Shown here piece after piece: positions 4,895 through 57,800 of a DNA stretch of 64,000 nt. The position numbers were made by a program, and so were the translations under genes. The notes beneath the pieces were generated by a model. The model was not told where the DNA came from. It made no database searches and saw only the letters and a program-made list of their open reading frames with translations. How positions within the stretch are numbered: the stretch's first letter is position 1; every line of letters starts with the position of its first letter. Source of the DNA: Nitrosopumilaceae archaeon. GTDB taxonomy: Archaea; Thermoproteota; Nitrososphaeria; Nitrososphaerales; Nitrosopumilaceae. The stretch lies in contig CBDBCR010000003.1 of assembly GCA_965203465.1 (NCBI GenBank), positions 576,001-640,000 of the forward strand, written 5' to 3'.

Positions 4895-5379
4895 GGCCGC
4901 TAGGAGCGCCGCGATCCTGGACGTGTTCTTTCCGTTCTTCGAGGCGCCCCCGACGTCCGGCGGGGGTGCCGGGCGCGCGAGGCGCGGCGAAGCGGCGCGG
5001 GCCGGCACGGCGCTGCGCGGCCGGTCCGCGGGGCTTCCCCGCAGGGCCGAACGCGCGCCGCCCGGCGCGGATCTGGCGCGCCGGATGGAGGACGAGGCGA
5101 TCGCGTCAGGATGCGGCTCGCCTGGGGAGGGCAAGCCGGACACGGGGCCGGAAAACGCGGCGCCGTGCCTCTACGTGCGCATCCGGAACTGCGCCCTACG
5201 AGCGAGGCCGAAAGGACGCTCCGCCCCATCGCGATCCAGCGCCTGATCGGGAAGCGCCACGTGGCCGAGGGGACGGGCGCGTTCAGCGCGATCATGGCCT
5301 GCGCGCCGACCCGGCGCAAGCGGGGCCTGAACGTCCACGGCGAGTTCTGCCGGCGCCTATCGACGGCCCGGCCGCTTAC
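4895..5379 (+). mobile_element. Degenerate IS66-family transposase fragment with right terminal inverted repeat
   Basis: Frameshifted remnants AAILDVFFPF and HPELRPTSEAERTLRPIAIQRLIGK...CAPTRRKRGLNVHGEF resemble the IS66 TnpC C-terminus. Ends in ...GGCCGCTTAC (GTAAGCG on the other strand, the IS66-type terminus). Left boundary approximate. Confidence 0.7.
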
Positions 5380-23026: not shown

Positions 23027-23619
23027 CCGCGCAAAAGCTTCTGCTGTTCGGCAAGTGGGATCTCGAGCCGATCGAGGTCTCCGACATGGGCCTGAAGACG
23101 GCCATATCGCTGCGCCCCATGACGGTTCCGCTCACGTTCGGGCGCTCGGCGCTGAAGCGCTTCAACAAGGCCGACGTCAACATAGTCGAGAGGCTGGCCA
23201 ACAAGATGATGCACTTTGGCAAGCGCTACGCAAAGAACACCGGGCGCATGACCGGCAAGAAGATGAGCGTGTACAACACCGTAAAGTCGGCCTTTGAGAT
23301 AATACACCTAAAGACGGGGCGCAACCCCGTCGAGATGCTGGTGCGCGCCGTGGAAAACTCGGCGCCCAACGAGGACACCACGCGCATAGTCTACGGCGGG
23401 ACGGTGTACCACGTCTCGGTGGACGTGGCCCCCATACGGCGCGTGGACCTTGCCCTGCGCTTCATCGCCGACGGCGTGAAAGAGGCCACGTTCTCGAGCA
23501 CTCGCACCATAGAGGAGCACCTGGCGGACCACATCATCGTGGCGGCCAACAACGACCCCAACTCCCCGTCGGTCAAGAAAAAGAACGAGCTGGAGCGCAT
23601 AGCGCAGGCGTCTAGATAG
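23023..23619 (+). CDS. rps7: 30S ribosomal protein S7
   Basis: [37 protein letters not shown]. Confidence 0.97.
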
Positions 23620-23704
23620 CCCGAGGCAGATTCGAACTGCCGCCTCTGCCTATCCACTCTTGTGATCCAGAGGGCAGAATCCTTAACCGCTAGACTATCG
23701 GGCT
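23617..23704 (-). tRNA. tRNA-Gln(CTG) with a 15-nt intron at 37/38 (23652-23666)
   Basis: Reverse complement folds: acceptor AGCCCGA/TCGGGCT, anticodon arm CTGCC-CT-CTG-G[ATCACAAGAGTGGAT]A-GGCAG, T arm GGCAG-TTCGAAT-CTGCC. Confidence 0.92.
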
Positions 23705-24823: not shown

Positions 24824-25833
24824 CTGCGCGCCACCCGTATCAGGTCGGCGATGCGCACGTCCATGCCGAACCTGTCCTGGTTGGACCTCATGTACCTGAA
24901 TATGGCCAGAAAGTCCGGCAGCGAGCGGACCAGCGAAAAGTCGCGCCGTATCTTGGAGCGCACAAAGTTGAACACCCGGCCGTACACGCGGTAGTGCCGC
25001 TCGACGGCCCTCTCGTAGGCGTCCAGATCCGAGATGTTGCGAACGAACAGGTCGGCGCACTGCATGCTCGGTATGATGCCCTCGCCGAGCAGCGCGTACA
25101 CGGTGCCGATCGATTCCCCCACGCCGACGACCTTGCCGCGCCTGTACGGCTTGCACCTGTCCGGCGTGGCCAGCCGTATGGGGCGCCCCTTTGTCTTTAC
25201 GATGCGCCCCCCGTGCTTTCTTACGAACTCGTCGGTGGCGCGCACGTGGTTCTTGTTGTAGTCGCCGGCCCCCACGTGCGCCCACTTTTCGCCGAGCGGA
25301 AAGTACCAAAAGTACCCCGACATGCCCGGGAACGGCTCTATGTAAAAGTCGTCGTAGGGCACCCCGCCGTCGTACTCTACCTTGTACTCGTAGGTCGGCA
25401 GGAAAAAGTCCTCTTTCAGTTTCGGCAGGTAGCACCTGTGGAAGCCGGTGCAGTCCACCACCATGTCGTACTCGGATTCCAGGTCGGCGAGGGGCGGCGA
25501 TGCTCCGTACCTCACGTCCGAGCCCGATATGAAGTCCCTGATCAGCCCTATCTTGTCGTACGTGCACAGGCCGTGCAGGCCGATGTCGAACCGCCCGCCC
25601 TTTGGCATGCGCACGTACATCTTTTTGCCGTCGTGTATGACGTACTTTGAAAAGTCCACGCCCGCCTGCGAGCACAGGCCGTCGAGCACCGTGCGGATGG
25701 TGCCCCACGCGCATATCGAGTCGTGCCTTTCGCGCTCCATGCGCTCGTAGCCGACGGCCTCGTGCCCAGAGCCGCGCAGGCGCGCCATCACGTAAGAGCC
25801 TGCCACGCCCATGCCCATGACTGCTATCTTCAA
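24820..25833 (-). CDS. FAD-dependent oxidoreductase, geranylgeranyl-reductase-like
   Basis: KIAVMGMGVAG, CAWG, GYFWYFP, VGESIG...GEGI. Confidence 0.85.
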   Translation of the reverse strand: MKIAVMGMGVAGSYVMARLRGSGHEAVGYERMERERHDSICAWGTIRTVLDGLCSQAGVDFSKYVIHDGKKMYVRMPKGGRFDIGLHGLCTYDKIGLIRDFISGSDVRYGASPPLADLESEYDMVVDCTGFHRCYLPKLKEDFFLPTYEYKVEYDGGVPYDDFYIEPFPGMSGYFWYFPLGEKWAHVGAGDYNKNHVRATDEFVRKHGGRIVKTKGRPIRLATPDRCKPYRRGKVVGVGESIGTVYALLGEGIIPSMQCADLFVRNISDLDAYERAVERHYRVYGRVFNFVRSKIRRDFSLVRSLPDFLAIFRYMRSNQDRFGMDVRIADLIRVARS

Positions 25834-26175
25834 CGGCGCCCGCGGGGGCTCTTGGACTAATAAACTCATCACGCAGAGTGCCGTGCGTCCCCGGCTGCCC
25901 CGGCCCGCGCGGCCGCCCGCGTCTGTGCCGGCGATCGCGGGCTTTGGCAGTATGCCGGCCTCGCCCGCATGGGCTGCCGCGGCATGTCGGGCGCCGTCGT
26001 AAGCGCGCCGCCGTCCGGATCCGGCGCCCCGATCTTCGGGGCCCGCCTAGCGCTGCCCGTTGATGCCCCGGTACCCGGACAGCTGTTCGAAGAGCAACGC
26101 GGCCCTGTGCCGCTCTGCCAGTGCCGCCTCGCGCAGGAGCGCGCCGTCCGGCGCGGTCTCCGGCACGCCGTCCGG

Positions 26176-29100
26176 CTACGGCGTCATCGCCTCGAGCGCC
26201 TCTTGGGCGGCGAGCACCTGCGCGTGCAGGTAGTCGCGGAACTGCGGATCGGAGCGGTCGTAGCCCTGCTTCGGTACCCCGTCGTACACGTACATCGATT
26301 CGTCTATTTCGTGGTAGAGACGCGACTGGTTGGAGAGCGGCACATAGTCCCCGTCGGGCGACATTTTGAACAGGTGGCCCTGTTCGTCCATCATGACGTC
26401 GGTGCTCGCAGAGCCCGCCGAAATGGGATACAGCACCATCCCGTTCACCCGTATTCCGGGCTGCGGGTCGAGCGGCTCGCCCGATACGCGTATGCCGTGG
26501 TTGTAGTAGTTCTGCCAAGAGTTGCGCTCCCTGTCCCACACGTCGGTGCCCACGATGTCGAATTCGAGCGGCGCGCGGAACGTGTGGTTTATCGTAACCG
26601 AGAGGCACTCCAGCTCCGAGCCCGCCGAGCACTGCACCGTCTCGTGCCCGGCCGACAGCGCATCCAAGTCGATGGCGCCGTCCGGATCTATTACCGATAC
26701 CGAGCCGGTCCCGTCGAAGGCAATGTCGTAGTTTATGACCGCCTTGCTTTCGGATATCACCTCGCCGGAGCGCAGGCCGAAGGCCACGGACACGTGCTCT
26801 ACGTTGCCGGGCCCCTCGTTTTCGTATATCTTCAGGGACACCGTGTTTTGCCTCGCCACCTCGGATTCTATCAGGGGGTACGGGGTGAAAAAGTACTCTA
26901 CGTCAGAGGACAGGCCGTTGTAGGAGAACCCTTCGTCGACCAGCCTCGCCCCGTACGAATCCAGCCCGAGCGTGGGCGGCGTGCAGTCGTCGCATTCCGA
27001 GCCGCCCGACTGCGGGTACGAGACGCCGAAGACCGAAAAGTGCAGCGTCCAGACCGAATTTTCAGAGACGCACGCGAGCGGATCGTACGTCTCGGCCGGC
27101 CAGCTCTCCGGCGCGTCCTGCTCGAGCGGCAGCTCTCCTCCGTATCCCTCGGCGCACGCAGGTATCGGCAGCACGGCGCCCGCCGCGTCGACCGAAAAGA
27201 CCAGCCCCGAGAGCGGTATGTCGAACTCCATGCGGACCGGCTTGCTGAACGCAATGTCGGCTACCGGGCTCCCTATCAGGACCGCCGTGGCCGGGTTGCG
27301 CAGGGCGGGGTACGCCTCGAGCGCCGGCGAGCCGGCGGGCACCTCGTATTCGGAGGGGGCCACGATGAGCGCGGCCTCTAGGCTCACGTCGGCAACAGTG
27401 AGCCCCGCCAGGCCGCCCACCTGCGTGTCTTCCTGGAAGAACACGTCTGGCAGGCCCGGCTCTTGCGTGATTATGCTCAGCGGGTTTGCGAACGCCGCGG
27501 TCCGGCCGCCGGCGAACGAGACGCGCGGATCCGTGATGCTCGCAGAGGACAGCTCGAGGGCCGGCTCGATGCCGGCCGGCACCGAGACTGTGCGCAGGGT
27601 GGTCCCCTTTGCGACGGGCAGCACGCCGGTCGGGCCCGGCGAGGCGGAATCCAAAGATGGGCCCACCCCCACCTGGCCGCCGGCTGCCGCGTTGCCGGCC
27701 AGATCCCGCACGGCCAGGCCGCGCAGCACAGCCGAGGCGGGCACCGTCCCGTCCCCGTCCCAAGATATCAGTATCGTCTCGCTGCCCGAAGCCGCCACCG
27801 ATGCCGAATACGTGCCAGAGCTGGTCGCCACCGATGCGCCGGAGACGTCGGCCGCCACCCGCTCAGAGTACCTTATCGTGGTCGAATCCTCCCCGCTTGC
27901 CGACGCCGAGACGACCGACGGGGGCGTGTTGTCCACCGATACGTTGGCGCCGGTCAGCTCGGCGGGGCCGGCGGTAAAGGGGATCCCGAACTCGTCTGTC
28001 ACGCGTATGGCAAACTGCAGCGGCCCGTCGGCCGCGCCGGCCGGGACTGCCAGGGACGCGGACAGCCCAAGGCCGCCGGCGTCCACCGAGGCGGACTCGG
28101 ACGCGCTCGATATCTGGACCGACGCCTGCGCGATGCGCGCGCCCGACGGGGCGGCCTCGAGGCGCAGCGTGACCGTGTCGCCGGCGCGTACCAGGCCGCG
28201 CTCCGTATCGTCCGAATTGAACGCGTTGCGCGCCGCGTTGTTGCTAGAGACCGTCAGTTCCCGCACGGCCACGCGGACGACCTCGTACTCTGCGGTCAGA
28301 GTCGTGGGCTCGAGCGCGTTGCCGAACCTGTCCTCTATGCCGGAGCCGGCCGAGACCTGCACGCGGCTCCCCTCGGCGAATGTCCCCGTTATGGTGATGC
28401 TGACCGTGGTGCCGTCGGCGGCCAGCGAGACCGAGCTTATCTGGTATCCAGACACCTCAAAGTCCGAAGCCTGCGGGGCCGCGAGTATGTCGTCAAAGAC
28501 GGCCCGCACTACCGAATCTGATATGACGGTGGCAGAGACGAACGCCGGCGCGGTGTCGTCGGTCACGCTCAGGGCCACCGTGGAGGCGCGGGCCGCGATG
28601 CCCGACGTGTCCGATATGCCCGAATTGTTCCCGATGCTGACGCGCACGCCGGCGCCCCCCGCGATTCGGATCTCTGAAAGGCTCAGATCGTACGACACGC
28701 GGGTGCGATCCCCGAGGAGCTGCGGCGTCGTATCCGCAAGGGCCGTCTCGGTTCCTCCCGAGACGAGGCTGACAGAGCCGGACGCGGCGGCCCGCACGTG
28801 CTCGTCGAATTCCAGTATCAGCACGCGCTGCGTCGCGTTGGCAAACGCCATGGTCAGCTCGGGGGGCACCAGATCCGAAGAGTCGTCGATCTCGGCGCCG
28901 GCCGTCTGCGCGACCGGCCTGTCCGACAGATCCCTCACGGCGCCCGCGTCGAGTGCCACGTGCGGCCTCGCGTATCCGATGGCCGCCTGCCGGAGGGCCT
29001 CGGTCAGCCTTACCGTGACTTGCGCGTCCGTATCGGTCGACGAGGCCACCGACGAGCCGGTCAGCGGCTCGCCGCCGGTCCCCGAGCCGTCGCGTATGCG

Positions 29101-32100
29101 GATCTTTGCCAGGTCTACGCCGGCGCCGTCCCGTACCGATTCGTTGAACGTGAGCGTCAATATGCCGGTGCCCTCGTCGAGATCGGGCCCGTCCGCGCCG
29201 CTCGCCACGAGGGCCGGGGCCGTCGTGTCCAGCGTCTGGCCGATGTCGGTGCCTGCCGCGTTTGCCGCGATTCCGTTCAGGGCGAGATCTTCGATCGCGC
29301 CGGCCGCGATGTACAGGTGCGGATCGTTCAGCAGTATGGCGCCGCGCCTGCTGGCCTCGGACAGCTCGAATACGAACGTCGTGCCGTCGGACTGGCCCGC
29401 CCGCATCTCGCCGTCGGACAGCGTGACCTCGCCCGAGGAACCGTCTTGAGAGTTTGCGCCCTCGCGCAGCTCAAAGCCGGTGCCGCTGCCCGCTCTCGAT
29501 ACGTCGATAGTCTCGTCGAACGTTATGGTCAGCACGCCGGTCTCTTCGTCGAGGGCCGCCGACGAGACCGCGGGCGGCGTGGTGTCGGTGACCTTTCTTA
29601 TCTCCGTGCTCGTCGTGGACGCAGCGATGTCCTGGTCGGACAGGTCCTTTACGGCGCCGGCGGCAAAGAGCAGGTGGGGCGCGGCATATCCGACGACTGC
29701 CTGGCTGAGCGTCGAGTGCAACGTTATGGTTATTTCGGCGTCGGTATCTGCCGTGGACGTCACCGTGGAGGTGGCCGTAGAGACGGACAGCGCGGTGCCG
29801 TCTGCCGTGGCGGTGAACGAGCCGTCGGCCACGAAGATCTTTTCCAGGTCGACGTTGGCCGGGCCGTCCTTTACCGATTCGCTGAACACGACGGTCAGCA
29901 CGCCGGTCGGCACGTGGAAGACCGGCTGCGTGGACGCGCTGATCGCCGGCGCCGTAGTGTCGGCCGTGTCGGTTATCTCGGTGCTGGCACTGAACGCCAC
30001 GATGGCCACGTCCGACAGGTCCGTCACGGCGCCCGAATCTAGCAGCAGGTGCGGCGTCGTATATCCGATGGCGGTCTTGCGCAGCGCCTCGGTGAGCTTT
30101 ACGGTGACTTGTGCGTCCGTATCGGCGGTGGACGTCACGGCAGATCCGGTCAGGGGGGTGCCGCCGGTCCCCGAGCCGTCGCGTATGCGGATCTTGGACG
30201 CGTCGGCAGAGCCGTCCTTTACGGATTCGTCAAAGTTGAGAGTCAATACGCCGGTCGCCTCGTCGAGGGCCGGCGCGGGCGCGGCCAGCGCCGGGGCGAC
30301 GGTGTCGGCCGCGTCGTTTATCTCTGTGCTGACGGCCGACGCCGCGATGTCCTGATCCGACAGGTCCTTGACGGCTCCCGAGTCGAGGCGCAGGTGCGGC
30401 GTGGCGTATCCGATGATTTCCTTGCGCAGCGCCTCGGTGAGCCGCACGGTTACGACCGCGTCCGTATCGACCGAGGAGGTCACCGAAGAGCCGGTCAGCG
30501 CGGTGCCGCCCGTGTTGAACGGGTCGTTGTCGACAAAGATCTTGGCCAAGTCTGCTTGGCCGTCCTTTACCGATTCGTCGAACGTCATGGTCAGTACGCC
30601 CGTCTCCTCGTCCAGCGAGGGCCTGTTGGGCCCGGTCGCCACGAGCGCGGGGGCCGTCGTGTCGGCCGTGTCGTCGATCTCGGCAGCTGCGGTCGATGCC
30701 GCGGCGTTCTGGTCGGACAGGTCCTTGACGGCGCCCGAGGTAAAGTACACGTACGGCGTCGCGTGTCCGATGGCCGCCTTCCTGGCCGCCTCGCGCAGTT
30801 TTATCGTTATTTCAGAGTCGGTATCGGCCGTGGATGTTACCTCGGAGGCGTCCCCCGAGACGCTCAAAGCCGTTCCGCCGCTGGCGGTCGCGCTGCCCGT
30901 AATGAAGATCTTTTCCAGGTCGACGTCCGATCCCTCCTTTACGGACTCGCTGAACGTCAGGGTCAGTATTCCGGTGCCCTCGTCGAGCGCGGGCTCGCTG
31001 CCCGCGGCGGTCACCAGTGTCGGAGCCGTCGTGTCGGCCGTGACGGTGAACACGTGCGATACCGCCGAGATGTTCCCGCCGGCGCCGCCCGTCACGAGGC
31101 CGGCCGGAACGCGCGCCCACAGCGTCCCCATGGCTATTGCCTTTTTGCGGTCCGGCTCCGAGAGGGTGAACGTCAGCTCGTTCCCCGACACGGTCGCATC
31201 CGAGACTGCCACCCGCACGTGCACGGTCGGATCGTATGTGGCCGAATTGGTCTGCGTGATGTCCATGCTGCCGGTCCCCGCAGAGACGGCGTACGAGAAC
31301 GTTATGGTGACGGCCCCGGTGCCGATGTCGACGGCCGCCGACGATACGACCGGCGCCGTGATCGAAAGGCTCACGTCGTGGGCCGCGTTCGTAAGCCCCG
31401 AGACGGTCGCGGCGTTGGCCTCGGCGTACAGCCTCGGGCTGGTCATGGCCAGCACCCTGGCAAGCTCGGTAGCCGTGATCGTGGCGGTGTGGGTGGCCGC
31501 GGCGGTGCCCGACAGCGTCAGCCGCACGTCTGTCCCCGAGGTGAACCCGTCGGCATCGCCCGCGGAGGCCACGTACACGTTGCCGGGGCTGGTCGCGGGC
31601 GCCGTGACCGATTCGCTGAACGTGGCGCTCAGCATCCTAGTCGCCGGCACCAGCGAGGAAGAGGTGATCCTTGGCGAGAGCACCGCGTCCTGCCCGGCGG
31701 TCAGCGCGTCGTTGGCCGTGCCCCCGGCAGTGACCACCGAGGAGGCAAGGTACACGTGCGGGCTGGCCATCGCGTTGACCTTTGCCAGATCCGCCGAAGA
31801 GAGCGTGAACGTGACCGCCGAGCCGGACGCGGATACCGAATTGGCGCTTGCGGCCACCCGCACGTCCCTCGACGAGCTGTGGGTGGCCGAGCTGCCCTCG
31901 CGTATGTCGATGTTGCCGGTGCTCTTTGTGACGGAATTGTCGAAGGTGAGCGTGACGACACCCGAGCTCCGGTCTATGGTGGAGCTGCTCAGCTCCGGCG
32001 CCGAGCTGGCGATCGTCATCGCCCTGGCGATTTTGACGTTGTCCGCCCCGCCCGAGTCGGTCACCGCCCCGGCGTTCAAATGCAGGTGCGGCGTGGCCAT

Positions 32101-33201
32101 GCCCTGCACCTTCGTGACGTCCGAGGCCGAAAGCGTGGCAGAGCCGGCGGTTCCCGAGACTGTGCTCAGCGTGCCGCTCACGTCGGTTCCCGAATCGTAC
32201 GCCCCCGTGGCGCTGTCGCGTATGTAAAAGGTGCCTGATTTTTTGGTTACCGTCTCGTCGAACGTGACCGACAGGGCCCGCGTGGCGGCGGTCATCTCCG
32301 CGGCGGTAAAGATGGGCAGGACGTTCAGCGGCTTTACGATGACGGCGTTTTTTGCTACGACGATATCGGAGTAGTCGTTTCTGAGGCCCGCAAAGGCGCC
32401 CGCGTCTACGTACAGGTGCGGGTTGGTGTACCCGGCGAGCGTGTCGCGGTTGGCGTCGGTGAGGATGAACTGTATCTGGTGCCGGGGGTGCGAGCCGGGC
32501 AGGCTGGGGGTGTCGGTGGAGCTCAGGTCTATGCCGCTGGTCGCCGACGGACCATCGCGTATGTGGAACTTGGTGGCGTTACTCGAGTGCAGGGTCGTCG
32601 GAAAGACCGCGTCGTCGGACTGCGTTTTGTAAGTGCCGTATTCCAAGGATTCGTCTGCTACGATGTGCAGCCTCTTGCTGTCCCTGTCGAACGTGGCGGA
32701 GGCGACCTTGGGGGAGGCGGTGTCGTCGCTCCAGACGACGTTGCTGCCCGCGTTCCGGCCCAGCCCCCCGACCTGCCCGAGCGCGGTGCTCGTATCTGCG
32801 GACTTTAGCGCCGTGTTCGATATGTAAAGGAGGACGGCAGACTGCGTCATCAGCCTCATGTCCTCCTCCTGCCCCGGCAGGTAGCGTATTAGTACAGAGT
32901 TTCCGCTGAACTCTATGGCAGAGCCCGTGATTTGGGAGGCGCCCTTTGTGTTACTGCTGCCGGTGCTCCTGTGGAGCACGATATCCTGCAGCGAATCTGC
33001 TTGGCTGGTATGGACCTGCATCGGGGTGTTGAAGTTTATGGTCAGGGTGGCGGCCCACGTGCCGTCGTTGATCATGTTCATGCTCGCCGCCCTGCCGGTT
33101 GCGGGATCGACCACCGAGGGCACGGTGGCCTCGGCTGCCGGCACCGCCGCGCAGCCTAGCGCCGCGGCCGCTACAACCAACAGGCCCCAAGATCTACCCA
33201 C
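26176..33201 (-). CDS. Giant (2341 aa) secreted surface protein with tandem ~115-125-aa beta-rich repeats
   Basis: Signal peptide; repeats DTTAPAL...LDExTGxLTLTFxESVKDG...GAVxDLSD; C-terminal ECDDCTPPTLG...KIYENEGP domain. Confidence 0.92.
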   Translation of the reverse strand: MGRSWGLLVVAAAALGCAAVPAAEATVPSVVDPATGRAASMNMINDGTWAATLTINFNTPMQVHTSQADSLQDIVLHRSTGSSNTKGASQITGSAIEFSGNSVLIRYLPGQEEDMRLMTQSAVLLYISNTALKSADTSTALGQVGGLGRNAGSNVVWSDDTASPKVASATFDRDSKRLHIVADESLEYGTYKTQSDDAVFPTTLHSSNATKFHIRDGPSATSGIDLSSTDTPSLPGSHPRHQIQFILTDANRDTLAGYTNPHLYVDAGAFAGLRNDYSDIVVAKNAVIVKPLNVLPIFTAAEMTAATRALSVTFDETVTKKSGTFYIRDSATGAYDSGTDVSGTLSTVSGTAGSATLSASDVTKVQGMATPHLHLNAGAVTDSGGADNVKIARAMTIASSAPELSSSTIDRSSGVVTLTFDNSVTKSTGNIDIREGSSATHSSSRDVRVAASANSVSASGSAVTFTLSSADLAKVNAMASPHVYLASSVVTAGGTANDALTAGQDAVLSPRITSSSLVPATRMLSATFSESVTAPATSPGNVYVASAGDADGFTSGTDVRLTLSGTAAATHTATITATELARVLAMTSPRLYAEANAATVSGLTNAAHDVSLSITAPVVSSAAVDIGTGAVTITFSYAVSAGTGSMDITQTNSATYDPTVHVRVAVSDATVSGNELTFTLSEPDRKKAIAMGTLWARVPAGLVTGGAGGNISAVSHVFTVTADTTAPTLVTAAGSEPALDEGTGILTLTFSESVKEGSDVDLEKIFITGSATASGGTALSVSGDASEVTSTADTDSEITIKLREAARKAAIGHATPYVYFTSGAVKDLSDQNAAASTAAAEIDDTADTTAPALVATGPNRPSLDEETGVLTMTFDESVKDGQADLAKIFVDNDPFNTGGTALTGSSVTSSVDTDAVVTVRLTEALRKEIIGYATPHLRLDSGAVKDLSDQDIAASAVSTEINDAADTVAPALAAPAPALDEATGVLTLNFDESVKDGSADASKIRIRDGSGTGGTPLTGSAVTSTADTDAQVTVKLTEALRKTAIGYTTPHLLLDSGAVTDLSDVAIVAFSASTEITDTADTTAPAISASTQPVFHVPTGVLTVVFSESVKDGPANVDLEKIFVADGSFTATADGTALSVSTATSTVTSTADTDAEITITLHSTLSQAVVGYAAPHLLFAAGAVKDLSDQDIAASTTSTEIRKVTDTTPPAVSSAALDEETGVLTITFDETIDVSRAGSGTGFELREGANSQDGSSGEVTLSDGEMRAGQSDGTTFVFELSEASRRGAILLNDPHLYIAAGAIEDLALNGIAANAAGTDIGQTLDTTAPALVASGADGPDLDEGTGILTLTFNESVRDGAGVDLAKIRIRDGSGTGGEPLTGSSVASSTDTDAQVTVRLTEALRQAAIGYARPHVALDAGAVRDLSDRPVAQTAGAEIDDSSDLVPPELTMAFANATQRVLILEFDEHVRAAASGSVSLVSGGTETALADTTPQLLGDRTRVSYDLSLSEIRIAGGAGVRVSIGNNSGISDTSGIAARASTVALSVTDDTAPAFVSATVISDSVVRAVFDDILAAPQASDFEVSGYQISSVSLAADGTTVSITITGTFAEGSRVQVSAGSGIEDRFGNALEPTTLTAEYEVVRVAVRELTVSSNNAARNAFNSDDTERGLVRAGDTVTLRLEAAPSGARIAQASVQISSASESASVDAGGLGLSASLAVPAGAADGPLQFAIRVTDEFGIPFTAGPAELTGANVSVDNTPPSVVSASASGEDSTTIRYSERVAADVSGASVATSSGTYSASVAASGSETILISWDGDGTVPASAVLRGLAVRDLAGNAAAGGQVGVGPSLDSASPGPTGVLPVAKGTTLRTVSVPAGIEPALELSSASITDPRVSFAGGRTAAFANPLSIITQEPGLPDVFFQEDTQVGGLAGLTVADVSLEAALIVAPSEYEVPAGSPALEAYPALRNPATAVLIGSPVADIAFSKPVRMEFDIPLSGLVFSVDAAGAVLPIPACAEGYGGELPLEQDAPESWPAETYDPLACVSENSVWTLHFSVFGVSYPQSGGSECDDCTPPTLGLDSYGARLVDEGFSYNGLSSDVEYFFTPYPLIESEVARQNTVSLKIYENEGPGNVEHVSVAFGLRSGEVISESKAVINYDIAFDGTGSVSVIDPDGAIDLDALSAGHETVQCSAGSELECLSVTINHTFRAPLEFDIVGTDVWDRERNSWQNYYNHGIRVSGEPLDPQPGIRVNGMVLYPISAGSASTDVMMDEQGHLFKMSPDGDYVPLSNQSRLYHEIDESMYVYDGVPKQGYDRSDPQFRDYLHAQVLAAQEALEAMTP
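28860..31045 (-). repeat. About six tandem ~350-bp intragenic repeat units
   Basis: Recurrent DNA blocks such as GTCCGACAGGTCC, TTTACxGATTCG and GCGTATCCGATG, spaced about 350-370 bp apart. Boundaries approximate. Confidence 0.8.
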
Positions 33202-33209
33202 CCTCTAGG

Positions 33210-33245
33210 TCACCGCCCCCCCCCCCCCCCCGCATATTATATAAA
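33210..33245 (-). promoter_or_regulatory. Promoter of the giant surface protein: TATA box, G16 tract, SD-like GGTGA
   Basis: Minus strand reads TTTATATA-ATATGC-G16-C-GGTGA-CCTAGAGG-GTG(start). C16 on + at 33216-33231. Confidence 0.8.
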
Positions 33246-33263
33246 CCAAACATGCCCCAAACT

Positions 33264-33790
33264 GTAAGCGGCCGGGTCGCCGATAGGAACAGGTAGAACT
33301 TGCCACAGGCATTCGGGCCCCGCTTGCGCCAGGTCAGCGCGCAGGTCAGGATCCTGCTTAACGCCCCCGCCCAAGTCACGCGGTGCTTGCTGATCAGGCG
33401 CTGTATCACGACGGGGCGGAGCGGCCCGGCGAACCGGTCGCGCAGCGCCGCGCCGGCCCGCAGCGCTTGGCTGCGTACCGCGTCGTCCCCACGCCCACGT
33501 CCGGCCGGGCTTGTCCAGCTCGCCCTTTGCCTTGCCGGCGCTTTTTTGGTTTCGGCCGCTTGTATCTCCAAGTTCACGGACGCCGCCCCGATCGGGCGCC
33601 CGGCGGTGCTTTTTGCCGTGCGCATGCCATGGATTTTGAGCATGCCGCGCACGGCGTCGACTCTTGCCGCACGACATGGTGGGCGCCGCCGGACCCATCG
33701 GCGTGCCGGGTATCTCAGGATCCGGCGCCTGCGTGTGCGCCGCATTCGACGCAGGCGTGCGCCGCGCCGCCAAAAACGCCCGCTTGGGGC
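33264..33790 (-). mobile_element. Second degenerate IS66-family transposase fragment with terminal IR
   Basis: LRPVVIQRLISK...ILTCALTWRKRGPNACGKF; GTAAGCGGCCGGG terminus at 33264; clear DNA similarity to 5220-5379. Far boundary approximate. Confidence 0.72.
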
Positions 33791-33873
33791 ACGTGTGGAA
33801 AAACACGCCGGATCTGGCAGCTTGCCGTACGCCCGACGCTACCCATATAATCGACCGGGCGCCGCGCGGCGGC

Positions 33874-36555
33874 ATGGACGGAGCTGACGGGGGGCCGGCC
33901 GTGCCGGCTACAGGGGATGTCGTCTATGCGCTGCTGCGCGACAACGCGCCGCTGGTGCGCAAGCTGCTCGAGGCCTCGCCGTTCATAGATCCCCGCGGGC
34001 GCATCGGCGCCCCGCAGGGCGAGTTTTTCTCGGCGTACGGCGAGTTCGACCACGCCGCGACGGCGCTCGGGCAGGTGCAGAACCGGTTCCGCGTCTGGGC
34101 AGAGTCGGTCGTCAACGGGTTCGATTACGGGCTCAACGGCAGCATCGGCGCCCATCCGGGCAGGTTCACGCCCGCCGAGCTGGACTGCGCCAACCTGCTG
34201 TTCTGGCTGGACGGCCTCGAGGAGGCAGGATGCGGCATGCCCGGCGTGCGCGAAGCCGTGGCGCGCATGGACGGCAGCGTCGCCGTCCGGGACGCAGCAG
34301 AGGCCGTAGCCGAGTTTTACGCGCTCCTGCCCGGCGCGGCAAAGGACGCCAAAGCAAGGACCGTGGAAGAGACCGTCGCCCCCCCCCCCCCCCGGCTTGA
34401 GGCGGGCTCGCTGGGGGCCGTCGACGCCCACGCCGCACCGGCAGACGAGTTCCTCGCGCACGTAAAGGGCGAGGCCGGGTGGGCGTTTGAGTTTCTGGTG
34501 CTGCACGGCAGCTATGCGACGGGCGACTATGTGCGCGGCTGCTCGGATCTGGACACGTTCGGGATCCTGCGCGAAGACACCGCCGCGTCGGCAGACGAGC
34601 TGCTGCGCCTGCGCGGCGCGGTGCTGCCCGCCTGGAGGCACCTGTACAGGATAGACCCGCTGCAACACCACGGCGTCATGCTCGCCTCGGCCCAGGACGC
34701 CGGCTTTTACGCGCAGCATTTTTTCCCGCTAGAGCTGTTCGGGCACGCAAAGACGGTCGCGGGCGGGCGCTCGTCGTTTGGCGTGCGCGACGGCAGGTTC
34801 GACGAGCTCGTAATCATGCACCAGACGCTGCACGGCCTGCTCTGCGCCGGGCCGGGGTCGCTCGACGCCCTGTCCGTCCACCGGCTCAAGTGGCGCCTAC
34901 AGCTCGTCCTGCTGCTGCCGGCCCTGTCGTTCATGACGGAGGGGCGCTACATGTACAAGCGCGACTCGTTCAAAGAGATCGAAAAGGCGCTCGACGGGGA
35001 CGAGCTGCGCTCGCTGCGCGCGTGCAGCCGGGCACGCAGCGAAAACATGTACGGCGAGAGCGAGTTTGCCTGGAATCCGGACGGCGAGATCGGCGCCCAG
35101 CTGTCCGCCTACCGGGAAAGCGTGCTGGACGGGCCGCCTCCCCCGGCCCTCGCAGCCGCGGTGGACGACGGCTTTTTGCAAGGCCTGCGCGACTTGGCCG
35201 CGCGCCTGGCGGCCAGGATGATATCCGGGCTATTCGGCAAGAGGTACCCGTACATGCAGGCCGCCTTCGAATGGGAGGACGGGCCGTCGCCGGCCGAACC
35301 GCGCGAGTACGACGAGGCCGCAGCGTCGATAGCCGCCAAGATCTCCGCAAGGTACCGCAATGTCTCGGTGCTCCGCCACGGGGGCGTGGAGGCGCCCGGG
35401 ATATCGGATCTCGACCTAGTCGTGCTCGTGGATGGCCCGACCGACGCGGGGAATCTGGCAGAGGACTGGGAGGGCATGCTCGATTCGCGCCAAAAGTACC
35501 TGTGCTCCCACGCCCCGTTCATGATACCGGCCGGGCTGCTCGGGCGCATCCAGGAGGTGTGGCCGGTGAGCCGCCTCGCCGAGCCGGACGGCTCGCCGGT
35601 CGGCGGCGTCCCGTACGAGCCCGACTGGAAGGCCCACGTGCCCACCTTGGCGGAGCTGTACGTGTTCGTCAACCCGCTCGCCGGATATTGCGAGGCGTTC
35701 GCGACCGGAAGGATCGGGGAGCGCGCCGCGCTCTCGGCCCTAAAGTCTCTGACGTACACGCTGGCCATACTCGGAGCAAACGGCGCCGAGCTGGGCGCGG
35801 GGTTCGGAAAGGAGGTAGACGGCCTGCGCGCGTCCTGGTTCGGCGCGGACGTGGCGGCGCGCAGGACGCACCTGCTTGACCTGTATGTCAGGTCGCTCGG
35901 AATACACCTGGGCGCCATGGAAGCAGTCCGCCGCAGGATGGCTCGGGACGCGGGGCGCGCGTCCCGCGTCGCCGGATCCGCGTTCGATCAGATCGCGTTC
36001 GTGCCGGACTGGTCGCCGCAGGCGGCCCTGGACTGCATCTCCGAGCAGATGTACAGGGCCGATTCCCACCTCCAGGCGATGCCGGCAGAGTTTCTGGCGC
36101 AGCTTTGCGCGTACGCAGGCCGGCCCGGCCCGCTCTCGCGGTACCTGTCGGGGCACGTCGAGCGCAGCCCGGATCAGGAGGCCGCGCCCGGAGGGCCGTC
36201 CGAGCGCCGCGCGGCCCTGCTGGACGGGGCCCTGAGGGATCTGGAGGGCATGGGCGTAAAGACCCCGGTGCTCCCCGCGTTCGCGGTCAGGGAGGCCCCC
36301 GACTACGGCGGCATGCGGCGCCACCTGATGTCCATGGTCTCCGATCCGGGCGGGGCCGCGCGGGCGGCCTGCAGGGCCGAGCGCGCCCATTACGAGCTGC
36401 GCGGGGAGAACGCGCAAGAGCTGCGCCGGAGCCGCGACGGGCTGTCCGAGACGCTCGAGGGCATATACGCGAGCAGGACGTGGCGGGCGCTGCGCGCGCT
36501 CGACTCCGTTGCCGAAAAGATGCCCTTCCGCCCCTCGGGGCGGCGCGGTTCCTAG
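33874..36555 (+). CDS. 893-aa protein with two Pol-beta-type nucleotidyltransferase domains and a C-terminal coiled coil; contains an in-frame C15 tract
   Basis: HGSYATGDYVRGCSDLD and HGGVEAPGISDLDLVV match hG[GS]x(n)DhD; tail YASRTWRALRALD. ATG 24 nt after CATATAA. Confidence 0.8.
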   Translation: MDGADGGPAVPATGDVVYALLRDNAPLVRKLLEASPFIDPRGRIGAPQGEFFSAYGEFDHAATALGQVQNRFRVWAESVVNGFDYGLNGSIGAHPGRFTPAELDCANLLFWLDGLEEAGCGMPGVREAVARMDGSVAVRDAAEAVAEFYALLPGAAKDAKARTVEETVAPPPPRLEAGSLGAVDAHAAPADEFLAHVKGEAGWAFEFLVLHGSYATGDYVRGCSDLDTFGILREDTAASADELLRLRGAVLPAWRHLYRIDPLQHHGVMLASAQDAGFYAQHFFPLELFGHAKTVAGGRSSFGVRDGRFDELVIMHQTLHGLLCAGPGSLDALSVHRLKWRLQLVLLLPALSFMTEGRYMYKRDSFKEIEKALDGDELRSLRACSRARSENMYGESEFAWNPDGEIGAQLSAYRESVLDGPPPPALAAAVDDGFLQGLRDLAARLAARMISGLFGKRYPYMQAAFEWEDGPSPAEPREYDEAAASIAAKISARYRNVSVLRHGGVEAPGISDLDLVVLVDGPTDAGNLAEDWEGMLDSRQKYLCSHAPFMIPAGLLGRIQEVWPVSRLAEPDGSPVGGVPYEPDWKAHVPTLAELYVFVNPLAGYCEAFATGRIGERAALSALKSLTYTLAILGANGAELGAGFGKEVDGLRASWFGADVAARRTHLLDLYVRSLGIHLGAMEAVRRRMARDAGRASRVAGSAFDQIAFVPDWSPQAALDCISEQMYRADSHLQAMPAEFLAQLCAYAGRPGPLSRYLSGHVERSPDQEAAPGGPSERRAALLDGALRDLEGMGVKTPVLPAFAVREAPDYGGMRRHLMSMVSDPGGAARAACRAERAHYELRGENAQELRRSRDGLSETLEGIYASRTWRALRALDSVAEKMPFRPSGRRGS

Positions 36556-36653
36556 CCGCTGGTCTTCCCGGCAGGCAAGGCGTACGCGAAGCCGCGCACT
36601 GCAAAAACCGGGCCGGCCGCAAGGACTATTTGGATCGTCCCCCCGAGACCGGC

Positions 36654-36953
36654 ATGGACGCGGGCGAGGCTGCAAAGATGCTGCTTGCCGGCGCCACGCT
36701 GGCCGCGCAGCCCTGCCCGTACTGCGGCGGCGTGCGCGTCATAAAGGACGGCGACGCGTTCTGCACCGGGTGCAATAGCGCCCCGGCCGAGGGCCCCGCG
36801 CGCACGGGCGGGGCCGCCGAGGCGCTCGAGAGGAGCATAAGCGAGCTCTCGCTGAAAGTCGCCGCCGAGACCGACGGGGCAAGGCGCGCAGAGCTGGTCT
36901 CGTCCATAGACCGGCTCTCCTCGGCGCTCGAGAGGTTGCGCAAGACAGGTTAA
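36654..36953 (+). CDS. Zn-ribbon protein, autoantigen p27 / UPF0148-like
   Basis: AAKMLLAGATL..PCPYCGG......GDAFCTGC followed by a helical tail. Confidence 0.82.
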   Translation: MDAGEAAKMLLAGATLAAQPCPYCGGVRVIKDGDAFCTGCNSAPAEGPARTGGAAEALERSISELSLKVAAETDGARRAELVSSIDRLSSALERLRKTG

Positions 36954-36980
36954 TATTGTATTATGGCAGAATGCGCCACT

Positions 36981-38339
36981 ATGTGGGCGGTCTTTGTAGC
37001 AGCGGCGCTGGTCGCGGTTGCAGGCATCGCCGCGCCGGCCATGGGCGCCCAGTTGATAGCGTCGGTCAACCCGAGCGCCGGCGAATCCGAGTTCAACATG
37101 AGGTACCTGAGCACCGTCTCGGTCCAGTACCCCGACGGCGGCCAGGTCGCCGACCTGCTGCGCGGCCACCAGGCCCAGATGTCCGCGTTCGTGGCAGCCG
37201 GCACGCCCGAATCCGAGGCGGTGGCCGAGATGATCACGGCCACGATGCTGGCCAACGGCAGCCAGGCGCGCGTGCAGGACATCGACGTAGAGTACACGGC
37301 CACCCTGCAGGGCAGGCAAGACGCCGCCTCGATAGACTACAAGGTCGAGATAGACGGGACCCTTGCGGGCTACGTCATACGCCCGCTGGAGGGCAGCAAC
37401 CCGGCCGTAGTCGACATGGGCTGGAGGGACATGAGCGTAAGCGGGCCGGTCATGCTGGGCGGCACCGAGATAAACATCCCCATGTCGTTCATAGAGGCCG
37501 AGGTGCCCGGGCTCGCGAGGGCCATGTCCGGCTCCGAGGCAGAGGCGCTACTGCGCGCTCCGCTCATGGATTCTTCTTTCATACTAGAGCAGCCGCTGGC
37601 CAACTGGCACTCGCTGTTCGATCCCACGGGGGTGAACGTGGACGCCGCTACGTTCGGCATCAGCGACGAGATAGCCGGGTTCGTCGTCACCGCGTACACC
37701 ATGGGCGAGAGCAGCTTTAGGGAGGGCATACAGATAGAAAGGATACAGAACGCGCCGTTTGAGGCCGACCGCGAGTACAACGTAAAGGTGACGCAGTCGG
37801 CCGACAACGGGAACGTCGGCGTGATCGGCTTTGCGCAGCTCGATTCCATAGACGGCCTGGAGATAGTCGGGGTGTTCCCGACGGCTCCGGCCAACACGGC
37901 CGACACGTCGACGGGCGACTTTCCGGTGTTCATCATGTACGGCATGGCCGGGGTGGCCGCGGTAGGCGCCGTGGCGTTCTTTGCGTTCAGCAGCAGGCAG
38001 ATGAAAAAGGAACAGGGCCAGGGCCAGACCGGCATAGACCCCTCGAGGCTGGTCGGCCGCCAGACTAGCGAGAGCTCCGGGGGCTACCACACAAACCGCG
38101 GCGAGGCCCAGCTTGCCGAAGAATCTCAGTACCAAAAGACCAGGAGCGTCTACGACGACCCCGACGCGGGCGAGCAGCCCAGCCTGCCAGCCGAGCCGTC
38201 CCAAGAGGCGGCGTGCGGGTGCGCCGCCTCGGCCGAGATGGGCTCCGAGTGCGACTGCCAGATGCAGGGCTCGTGCCTGTGCGATTCGTCGTGCGGGTGC
38301 GCGATCGAGGTGTGCGTAGAGCACGCTCGCGAGTTTTAG
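36981..38339 (+). CDS. Single-pass membrane protein with a cytoplasmic Cys-rich tail
   Basis: Signal peptide; TM FPVFIMYGMAGVAAVGAVAFFAF; C-terminus CGC...CDC...CLC...CGC...C. Confidence 0.82.
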   Translation: MWAVFVAAALVAVAGIAAPAMGAQLIASVNPSAGESEFNMRYLSTVSVQYPDGGQVADLLRGHQAQMSAFVAAGTPESEAVAEMITATMLANGSQARVQDIDVEYTATLQGRQDAASIDYKVEIDGTLAGYVIRPLEGSNPAVVDMGWRDMSVSGPVMLGGTEINIPMSFIEAEVPGLARAMSGSEAEALLRAPLMDSSFILEQPLANWHSLFDPTGVNVDAATFGISDEIAGFVVTAYTMGESSFREGIQIERIQNAPFEADREYNVKVTQSADNGNVGVIGFAQLDSIDGLEIVGVFPTAPANTADTSTGDFPVFIMYGMAGVAAVGAVAFFAFSSRQMKKEQGQGQTGIDPSRLVGRQTSESSGGYHTNRGEAQLAEESQYQKTRSVYDDPDAGEQPSLPAEPSQEAACGCAASAEMGSECDCQMQGSCLCDSSCGCAIEVCVEHAREF

Positions 38340-38345
38340 TGGCGT

Positions 38346-38618
38346 GCTGGGAGTAACCCTCCTCTTGTTTTCCGCGGCATTTCGCTTTGCGGCCCACCCC
38401 GACCGGGCACGGGCACCCGAGGTCGCGTTCGGCCTTGCTCCGCGCGGGTCGGACCTTCCACTCCGCCTCCCGGGAACCTCAGGCTCTTGCCATCACCGTG
38501 CCCCGGGCCGGATTGCTTTCTGTTCCGTCGCCGGCCGTCTCCGGCCGCCCGTCTCCGGGCCGCGCATCCCGTGAGGAGGAAGGAGTTTCCTCTGCCACAG
38601 CAGCGCTCGCGCTCCAGC
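38346..38618 (-). ncRNA. rnpB: Archaeal RNase P RNA
   Basis: Reverse complement contains GAGGAAACTCC (P4 5' strand), ACAGAAA, GAGCAAGGCC and AACAAGAGGAGGGTTA (P4 3' strand); terminal GCTGG/CCAGC pairing. Confidence 0.9.
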
Positions 38619-38670
38619 TCGCCGGCGCGGCGCGGCAAATCCTCTTATTTGAAAGTGTCCCCCCGGCAGC

Positions 38671-39363: not shown

Positions 39364-40722
39364 TCAGGGCGCGGCGTCTTTGGGCGACGGATCCGACACC
39401 TCCCCCATGAACAGCACCAAGCCGCTCTGCTCGTCGTATATGGCAAACAGGAACGGCCGGTCGGCGTTGAAGTGGGGCGGCATGGATTCAATCGCAATCA
39501 CGATCGTAGTGACGGCCGCCGCCTCGGTCCCCTCTTCGTTCACCTTTACGTACGCGTCGTGCTTTGCCTTGTCGACGTAAAGGTTGCCTCGCAGAAGAGA
39601 AAGGTCGGCGATCCCGCTCAGATCTGCAAGTCTCTTATCAAAGGCGTCGGGCATCCCCATCTGTATGAGGCTGGATTTCAAATCGTAGCCCGTCTTGATC
39701 TCGAATTTTGGCAGCGACACCACGACCTCTTGCGGCGCCAGCATCCCGATATACTCGGACATTTTCCCGGCGGACAGTTCCAGTTGTTCGAGGCCGCCCT
39801 GCCCGCTAGGCAGCACAGCCAGCATGGAGAGCCTGTCCCCTTCGTACGGCAGCCGGAGAACTTGGGCGTCCCCCGTGTCGGCATAGTCAAATATGTCCGT
39901 CACGTGCATAAAGTCCGCGTCGACGACGTCCTTCCCGTCTTTCCAAAACTGGCCCTCTCGCGTGTTTTCTTTGGGGAACTGTACAAGCCAAGTCCCCTTG
40001 AAGTAGACGGCGTTGGTGATCACAGCGGCGGTGTCCCTGTCGACGTCCCTGTCGGACAGCACCTTTTGGATCTTGTCGCGCGTCTTTTCGGCGGCCCAGG
40101 CGTTCACCTTTTTGACGCCGGGTTTTCCCTCCCCCGCAAAGTCGACTTTTTCGGCCGTGGCAAGGTACGTCCGGCGCGCTATGTCCAGGTACTGCTCGTA
40201 CGGCTCGAACCAGTCCGCCAGCCACAGCGCGTTGGCCATCTCCAGTACCGCGTGCGGGTCTTCGGCGTTGAGCGCGGCCATCATGTGCGCGGAGGCCGCG
40301 TGACGTGTCGCAGCGTCCGGCTCGAACCCGAACACGCCCAGCATCTGCTCTGCCGTGCTGCCGCGCGCCCCCTCGTACAGCACGGAAAAGGCGGCATAGA
40401 TGCTGACCGGCGAGAAAAAGATGTTGGTTTCTTTCTCGGGCTCTTCTGAGTCCTCTCGTTCCTCGGACGCTTTTCTGTAAAAGTCAAAGGCGAATTCGTT
40501 GACCGATTCTGCAATACGCGGGAGCACCTCGGGCGAGCCGATGTCAGACGCGGATAGCACCTCGACGGGTTCGGGAGGTTCACTTGCAGGATCCTGCGCC
40601 ACTTTCGGCGCGGGCGCCGGCGGCGCGTCGGACGGCCCCGGAGAACTTTCAAGCGCGAACGCAAAGACGGCGACCGACGCCGCGGCCGCGATCGCAAGCA
40701 AGGCGACATGGACGCCCTTCAT
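39364..40722 (-). CDS. Secreted or membrane-anchored serpin
   Basis: NIFFSPVSI, NAVYFKGTW, VNEEGTEAAA hinge, FNADRPFLF; hydrophobic N-terminus and Pro-rich linker. Confidence 0.95.
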   Translation of the reverse strand: MKGVHVALLAIAAAASVAVFAFALESSPGPSDAPPAPAPKVAQDPASEPPEPVEVLSASDIGSPEVLPRIAESVNEFAFDFYRKASEEREDSEEPEKETNIFFSPVSIYAAFSVLYEGARGSTAEQMLGVFGFEPDAATRHAASAHMMAALNAEDPHAVLEMANALWLADWFEPYEQYLDIARRTYLATAEKVDFAGEGKPGVKKVNAWAAEKTRDKIQKVLSDRDVDRDTAAVITNAVYFKGTWLVQFPKENTREGQFWKDGKDVVDADFMHVTDIFDYADTGDAQVLRLPYEGDRLSMLAVLPSGQGGLEQLELSAGKMSEYIGMLAPQEVVVSLPKFEIKTGYDLKSSLIQMGMPDAFDKRLADLSGIADLSLLRGNLYVDKAKHDAYVKVNEEGTEAAAVTTIVIAIESMPPHFNADRPFLFAIYDEQSGLVLFMGEVSDPSPKDAAP

Positions 40723-57718: not shown

Positions 57719-57800
57719 CGCCAGGTAAGGGATTCGAACCCCTGAGCGCTTGCGCGCAGCCGCTCTCGAGGCGGCCGCCGTACCACTTGGCTAACCTGGC
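57719..57800 (-). tRNA. tRNA-Ser(CGA)
   Basis: GCCAGGT/ACCTGGC acceptor, GCCGC-CTCGAGA-GCGGC anticodon arm, long variable arm, GTTCGAATC. Confidence 0.93.

Follow-up and report, generated by a model that had tools for sequence, protein, structure and literature searches.

Two long homopolymers at divergent genes

We analysed a 64,000-nucleotide (nt) stretch of DNA, hereafter the window, from a Nitrosopumilaceae archaeon (G000:C3:576001-640000, in the source genome G000, which totals 2.26 Mb in four contigs, C1 to C4, at 65% G+C). The genome encodes an archaeal AmoA, and its DNA was detected in metagenome runs of six studies, from sponge and marine samples; the host is an ammonia-oxidising, sponge-associated thaumarchaeon. 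Our subject is two long homopolymers in the window, C16 (a run of 16 C) and C15, the former in the putative core promoter of a giant gene for a secreted or surface protein and the latter within the coding sequence (CDS) of a nucleotidyltransferase (NTase) gene. Both runs stand where the original prediction placed them, and the part of contig C3 covered by the window holds no other G/C run of at least 10 nt. The 12 kb around the tracts contain 36 homopolymers of 5-6 nt, none of 7-14 nt and nothing else longer than 6 nt, and local repeats around both tracts were unremarkable. The features of the locus are as follows.

26176-33201, minus strand: giant secreted or surface protein gene, 2341 amino acids (aa), GTG start, N-terminal signal peptide, one Big_5 Ig-like match
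33202-33215, minus strand: 14-nt segment from the tract to the GTG, containing GGTGA, a putative Shine-Dalgarno (SD)-like motif
33216-33231, minus strand: poly-G16 on the giant-gene coding strand (C16 on the plus strand), between the TATA-like box and the start codon
33234-33245, minus strand: TATA-like A/T run TTTATATAATAT, 12 nt, 2 nt upstream of G16, a putative TATA box
33264-33535, minus strand: degenerate relic, putatively of the IS66 family, with DNA similarity to other relics
33844-33851, plus strand: TATA-like box CATATAAT, separated by 22 nt from the NTase ATG, a leaderless-type spacing; putative promoter element
33874-36555, plus strand: NTase gene with a candidate double NTase fold, 893 aa, ATG start, PF01909 at 28.6 bits against a cut-off of 21
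34379-34393, plus strand: poly-C15 in the NTase CDS, codons 169-173, reading A-PPPP-R in frame

A 2341-aa surface protein had been proposed at the giant gene, and the open reading frame (ORF) at 26176-33201, with its signal peptide, bears this out. Its description as a repeat protein is not supported, as self-BLASTP at 1e-5 found no internal repeats; a C-terminal membrane anchor was looked for in the product and not found. On the coding strand, the upstream region consists of the 12-nt A/T run, 2 nt, G16, 14 nt and the GTG, in that order. Because an in-frame stop separates the tract from the GTG start, the tract lies outside the CDS. The GGTGA motif is complementary to the 3' end of the 16S rRNA, GGATCACCTCCT. 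In archaea, transcription begins some 22-25 bp downstream of the TATA box. For G16 this predicts a start at the 3' edge of the run, immediately ahead of the SD-like GGTGA; a G12 tract would place it within that motif. Four other tract-bearing promoters (C4:5436, C3:519272, C1:1025001 and C3:442058) have 21-23 nt between the TATA-like run and the start codon. The tract-free NTase promoter has a matching 22 nt; it looks as though the G run took up the entire spacer of a leaderless mRNA.

For the NTase, we took ATG 33874 as the start rather than the TTG of a 963-aa ORF. The C15 run lies in a variable, poorly conserved linker that joins the N-terminal domain to the first NTase domain. The double-NTase architecture of the original prediction was recovered in part: Pfam gave one NTP_transf_2 match (residues 208-238), while the second domain corresponds to a motif only, an hG[GS]..DxD-like sequence near residue 510 seen by eye in the translation. 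A paralogue at C1:778287-782987, 48% identical, aligns with residues 14-887 and continues into GT4 and GT2 glycosyltransferase domains. Since the paralogue covers this range, the N-terminal 168 aa belong to the NTase protein. The same fusion makes a glycan-related role plausible, and it is all that the earlier designation of the enzyme as a surface-glycan modifier has behind it. A search with the NTase as query found no orthologue among 40 relatives; a second, against metagenome contigs, found no relative, in a set from which near-identical records may be missing.

All four prolines of the tract are encoded by CCC (genome usage 0.37), and a conserved second PPPP in the same protein is encoded by CCG-CCT-CCC-CCG. 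When tract lengths were simulated, 9, 12, 15 and 18 C gave products of 891-894 aa (892 aa for C12, 893 aa for C15), while every other length gave 173-197 aa (195 aa for C11). The truncated products end before both catalytic domains.

The sequence between the two genes had been called an IS66 relic. Positions 33264-33535 share 78-82% DNA identity with relics at five other places in the genome (similar relics lie at C3:967310-967940, window 4983-5379, C4:74052-74219 and C1:813239-813362; the second IS66-like relic in the window spans 4923-5379). One of these, within C3:967201-968100, matches IS66-like transposases at 1e-10, whereas direct blastx of 33264-33535 reached only E 0.1 and ORFs between the giant gene and the NTase had no Pfam match. 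The IS66 assignment is thus indirectly supported, by way of a DNA-similar relic. Rfam also gave nothing between the two genes.

G/C runs across the genome and its relatives

The source genome contains 49 G/C runs of 10-18 nt, compared to 1.75 expected by extrapolation from the decay of shorter runs. Counts fall from 20 at 8 nt to 3 at 9 nt and then rise again (4, 8, 10, 10, 7, 6, 2 and 2 at 10-16 and 18 nt), giving a bimodal distribution with a second mode at 12-13 nt. Only two A/T runs of at least 10 nt were found in this genome. The C16 and C15 runs had been proposed as a special two-tract locus; they are instead two independent members of this genome-wide set.

Association with genes was tested in our own set of 2055 codon-bias gene calls, by asking for a G run on the coding strand within a 210-nt interval, -150 to +60 of the start. 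Such a run was found at 14 of the 15 genes of at least 2000 aa, at 3 of 48 genes of 1000-2000 aa and at 12 of 1992 shorter genes (Fisher p = 7e-20, genes of at least 1000 aa versus shorter). The bodies of the 15 longest genes are free of tracts, the only internal tract in a long gene being a G10 at the 3' end of a 1877-aa gene, and ORFs as long as 9057 aa remain intact to either side of their tracts. Long G/C runs are therefore common in this genome yet linked to function, concentrating at giant signal-peptide genes (14 of 15) and in restriction-modification genes. Pfam matches (E up to 0.001) were obtained for 16 of the 20 tract-associated genes of at least 400 aa (L015-L034), leaving four with none. 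The domains are mostly of surface type (FG-GAP, Ig-like Big_5/12/13, LVIVD/EPTP, beta-helix and PKD), and signal peptides accompany them. Some of the tract-bearing promoters are clearly paralogous, and the flanks are of at least eight types.

In six genes the tract is cut off from the start by a stop codon, which makes the tract a promoter or leader element. In other giant genes the signal-peptide core follows directly after the tract and the sole start codon lies upstream, so that the tract encodes glycines of the signal-peptide n-region and sets the reading frame. These signal-peptide tracts are out of frame at C3:223043, C2:85243, C3:193317 and C2:113230, and in frame at C1:1010391. For the FG-GAP gene at C3:223043, neither the public model on that contig nor an 82%-identical orthologue includes the signal peptide, both starting downstream of it; this could mark an OFF state or a choice of the gene caller.

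Other carriers are enzymes of DNA modification and mobile elements. Tracts occur in 4 of about 12 N6_N4 methyltransferase loci (14 family matches), namely C3:313794-314900, C3:751700-752490, C1:337000-338440 and C1:966250-967800, with runs of G11-G14. In all four genes the frame is lost precisely at the tract, and the two halves are otherwise intact. Homologues at 72-74% identity have a single ORF (335-346 aa) and no G run in that loop, and a search using the N-terminal half gave no full-length allele above 74% identity. In G003, a genome of the same genus, the orthologue of the methyltransferase at C3:313794-314900 reads through the G000 tract site without a tract and is frameshifted at a C10 of its own. 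A type IIG Eco57I/MmeI-like restriction-modification gene carries a tract at its 3' end. Finally, a 110-nt repeat with a G12-13 tract stands at the upstream end of IS66-family transposase genes (PF03050), with copies at C1:812445-812555, C1:313594-313702, C1:689350-689460, C3:87229-87339 and C3:385563-385646; here the tract is poly-C on the transposase coding strand.

The runs obey a strict strand rule. C1 carries 16 G runs and one C run and C3 carries one G run and 23 C runs, despite a gene-strand bias of only 53-55% and a flat GC skew. On C1, with orc1/cdc6 at 114 kb, each of the 15 tracts to the right reads G; to the left, a C16 at 61 kb fits the rule and a G10 at 19 kb does not. The NTase and IS66 tracts are poly-C on their own coding strands, yet follow the rule. 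In G003, 38 of 39 tracts fit two switch points, with orc1/cdc6 at 901 kb inside one of them, and in G016, from another genus, 10 of 12 tracts fit, with orc1/cdc6 at 1.42 Mb in a switch. If an origin lies by orc1/cdc6, as we assume, the G run is always on the lagging-strand template, that is, on the nascent leading strand.

Among 40 relatives, G runs of at least 12 nt were found only in four genomes of the same genus and in G005, G016 and G021; the other 33 had none. In G016, 4 of 12 tracts precede signal-peptide ORFs, but they lie upstream of the TATA-like boxes. Searches of five genomes for repair genes found MutS_V in none, and NucS in G000 and G003 but not in G016, G007 or G010, so that neither gene separates tract-bearing from tract-free genomes among these five.

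Several further tracts and neighbours are recorded here as observations in their own right. The longest G run seen, 26 nt, is at G016:C1:280081-280106, in a complete 1.64-Mb genome. In G000, a G18 at C1:261739-261756 lies 43 nt upstream of a 608-aa gene with an N-terminal ..IIQNSLDA motif, and in G003 a G11 (L045) stands 48 nt ahead of a gene that shares this motif, so the tract may be conserved at orthologues. A second short repeat family, ..GAGGAAGGCGCTCGGT-Gn-TGGAC.., carries tracts at C1:584527, C1:903000 and C3:85262; one GAGGAAGGCGCTCGGT-family copy is 75 nt upstream of a Na+/H+ exchanger gene and another 90 nt upstream of the 9057-aa gene. Within the window, an archaeal RNase P RNA was identified at 38342-38622 on the minus strand (158.8 bits), where ORF-based gene calls are spurious, and tRNAs lie at 23617-23704 and 57719-57800. 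A full-length serpin gene (39364-40722, minus strand; PF00079, E 5e-108) encodes a eukaryote-like protein in this sponge symbiont.

Length variation between natural populations

To compare samples, we aligned contigs from four runs of four studies (X1, X4, X10 and X12) over window positions 25500-37500. X10, in which 98% of the words were found, may be the source sample. All tract lengths given here come from assembled contigs or gene models and could be off by one. Nine indel rows were recorded over the 12 kb, three of which fall on the 31 tract bases: minus 4 at 33216 in X12, minus 3 at 34379 in X4 and minus 4 at 34379 in X1. X10 reproduces both C16 and C15. The promoter tract is therefore C16 in X10 and C12 in X12, and the coding tract C15 in X10, C12 in X4 and C11 in X1. 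The listed contigs of X1 and X4 end on either side of the promoter tract and, giving no cover, were not used as evidence there; loose poly-C ends at 34393 in X1 were uninterpretable.

We then considered public protein records of the NTase, which may overlap with the runs used above and in which fragments were joined into one contig when their carrier contigs had identical size. The records form three 90% clusters from 15 contigs, including the window's own contig C3. The strain-level cluster around the window protein has 12 members on eight contigs. Four of the eight are in frame through the tract (PPPP or PPP), three are split there and one could not be assigned. The split alleles encode fragments of 239+735, 261+685 and 214+685 aa, in which the N-terminal fragment ends a few residues past the prolines in a shifted frame and the C-terminal model restarts downstream. 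One of the four in-frame contigs is broken elsewhere; the allele in records P0012 and P0014 (703597-nt contig) is in frame through the tract and split near residue 407, shortly before the second PPPP. In a cluster at about 80% identity, three of five contigs are in frame and two are broken at the tract, while both contigs of a cluster with an interrupted proline run (A-L-PPP) are intact. Across the lineages with an uninterrupted tract, 5 of 13 contigs are thus frameshifted at the tract.

Orthologues from ENA, JGI and Logan keep a proline run at the tract site. In natural populations the NTase tract is a hot spot of frameshifts, with ON and OFF alleles both present. Variation in tract length between samples and strains, which the original prediction had anticipated, is thus borne out at both tracts by contigs and at the NTase also by public alleles. 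That prediction had named sequencing or assembly artefacts among the findings that would refute its claim; contigs from three further studies span the tracts. All the checks that it proposed thus came out in its favour.

Candidate contingency loci and competing explanations

The tracts are real, over-represented, targeted to gene starts and length-variable between natural populations. We consider it probable that they are slipped-strand contingency loci and together constitute an archaeal "phasome", with simple repeats situated both within a CDS (the NTase C15) and within a putative core promoter (the giant-gene C16). The tracts would be hypermutable mononucleotide repeats whose length is altered by polymerase slippage, each change being inherited. 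At the NTase, tract length would set the frame and generate ON and OFF alleles. At the giant gene, the G run may fill the space from the TATA-like box to the predicted transcription start and abut the SD-like GGTGA; because the TATA box fixes how far away archaeal RNA polymerase starts, tract length would set the mRNA start relative to the ribosome-binding site or start codon, and hence the amount of protein. With the same device on nearly all giant surface proteins, four DNA methyltransferases and IS66, a population could hold many combinations of surface and restriction-modification states, although RNA-polymerase slippage on long runs may blur ON and OFF. We infer the slipped-strand origin, the recurrence in both directions and the mixture of surface and restriction-modification states within a population.

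A more specific proposal, which we advance only tentatively and think could well be wrong, joins two features undescribed in bacteria: a homopolymer spacer between TATA box and start that registers the transcription start site against the start codon or SD motif of leaderless or short-leader mRNAs, and a G orientation of every tract along the movement of the fork from orc1/cdc6. The uniform orientation away from orc1/cdc6 would imply that strand-specific slippage by the archaeal replisome both creates the switches and drives them.

Several observations weigh against the contingency-locus reading. For the promoter tract only two lengths were seen (16 and 12), on one contig each, and its effect on expression is purely conjectural. 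As several giant-gene promoters are paralogous, the 14 of 15 association does not amount to 14 independent events. In G003, a crude test placed only one or two of 39 tracts ahead of a signal-peptide-like ORF, and several lie in repeat elements, so that the genus as a whole does not share the link between tracts and surface genes. The strictness of the replication-strand rule points to a mutational cause of tract location. The four methyltransferases, all OFF and with no near-identical ON allele, fit decay as well as switching. Finally, homopolymer length is the commonest assembly error, the lengths do not come from single molecules, and some of the long contigs may be long-read assemblies.

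Under a neutral explanation, lack of MutS and strand-biased slippage would expand G runs beyond about 9 nt to 12-15 nt, with tracts surviving where they do little harm (intergenic DNA and dispensable surface, restriction-modification and insertion sequence genes) and broken alleles representing gene decay. Such a by-product of mutation would account for the strand rule in G000, G003 and G016 against a gene-strand bias of barely more than half, for the failure to find MutS_V in any of the five genomes, for the G003 tracts lying mostly away from surface genes and for the frameshifts in all four tract-bearing methyltransferases. Tolerance does not, however, explain position, as the 15 genes of at least 2000 aa have no tracts in their bodies and 14 have one at the start. 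Neither does decay fit with ORFs of up to 9057 aa that are intact on both sides of the tract, or with NTase alleles that are ON and OFF within one 90% cluster and again in a second lineage, the frame breaking only at the tract. We therefore regard a purely neutral origin as unlikely.

A fixed role in cis is less likely still. Here the run would be a constitutive promoter or 5'-untranslated-region element of giant genes, such as a G/C-rich spacer that damps initiation, an extended SD sequence, a G-quadruplex or a site of reiterative transcription or RNA-polymerase slippage, with its length drifting without a role in switching. Consistent with this, the run is present at nearly all giant genes, the lengths seen are all long (11-16 nt), the run abuts an SD-like GGTGA matching the 16S 3' end, and the G016 tracts lie upstream rather than downstream of TATA-like boxes. 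A fixed element gives no account of the tracts that lie in coding sequence and whose length sets the frame (NTase, methyltransferases and signal-peptide n-regions), and a G/C-rich spacer needs no homopolymeric purity.

An origin in two-colour poly-G read tails or long-read homopolymer noise can be set aside, since for all the error-proneness of homopolymers, which may put exact lengths off by 1, the tracts are internal with unique flanks, are spanned by contigs from independent studies (X12 at the promoter; X1 and X4 in the CDS) with lengths differing by 3-4 nt, preserve the proline run in ENA, JGI and Logan orthologues and are placed in a strongly non-random manner.

As contingency loci, the tracts resemble the phasomes of Campylobacter jejuni, Helicobacter and Neisseria, where each small genome has tens of G/C runs, mainly in genes for surface structures, glycan modification and restriction-modification, and frameshifts give ON and OFF alleles among close strains. 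Unlike those systems, the present one belongs to an archaeon of 65% G+C that is a sponge symbiont, not a pathogen. Its runs, known from assemblies, are longer, with a mode of 12-15 nt, and their orientation is tied to the replication strand; most stand before, or in the first codons of, giant secreted proteins of 2000-9000 aa. Bacteria also carry homopolymers in promoter spacers, as in the poly-C/G between -35 and -10 of Neisseria opc and porA and Bordetella fim. The giant-gene tract is likewise a core-promoter run whose length changes are expected to tune transcription, but with a TATA box and no -35/-10 elements, length should move the start site rather than the fit to a sigma factor.

A variable G-repeat in the Helicobacter pylori tlpB mRNA leader is described as the target of the small RNA RepG (PMC8295292). 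The giant-gene tract is similarly a variable G run just upstream of a start codon and may act at the RNA level; the likeness is drawn from DNA sequence, and no partner small RNA is known for the G000 tract. Phase-variable DNA methyltransferases define phasevarions, according to PMC5909438 and PMC13076061. The G000 methyltransferases share with them a simple repeat in the CDS and a frame lost at the repeat, but they are archaeal N6_N4 enzymes (type II/III-like), are known from genes alone and occur in G000 only in OFF states.

Simple-repeat phase variation at many loci is treated as a hallmark of host-adapted bacterial pathogens. The apparent restriction of repeat-based multi-locus phase variation to pathogens is presented as an open question in a 2025 review (PMC11868660). 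According to a 2025 preprint, descriptions of archaeal contingency loci exist, in works we have not seen, and the literature includes surveys of short A/T tracts in 18 archaeal genomes, with archaeal surveys said to be still wanted. The original prediction knew of no such system in archaea, and we likewise found no description of an archaeal poly-G/C phasome in the literature searched. Within that literature, a trick known from bacterial pathogens is not documented on such a scale in archaea.

Collectively, these findings place about 50 candidate loci on giant adhesin-like and restriction-modification genes in an ammonia-oxidising sponge symbiont. With ON and OFF alleles already in public assemblies, the question of whether such variation is restricted to pathogens becomes testable with existing sponge metagenomes. 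The tracts suggest how symbionts might vary the surface that they present to phages or to a phagocytic host, and they may offer a natural handle on archaeal promoter geometry and transcription start, as well as on the fidelity with which the two strands are copied in archaeal replication.

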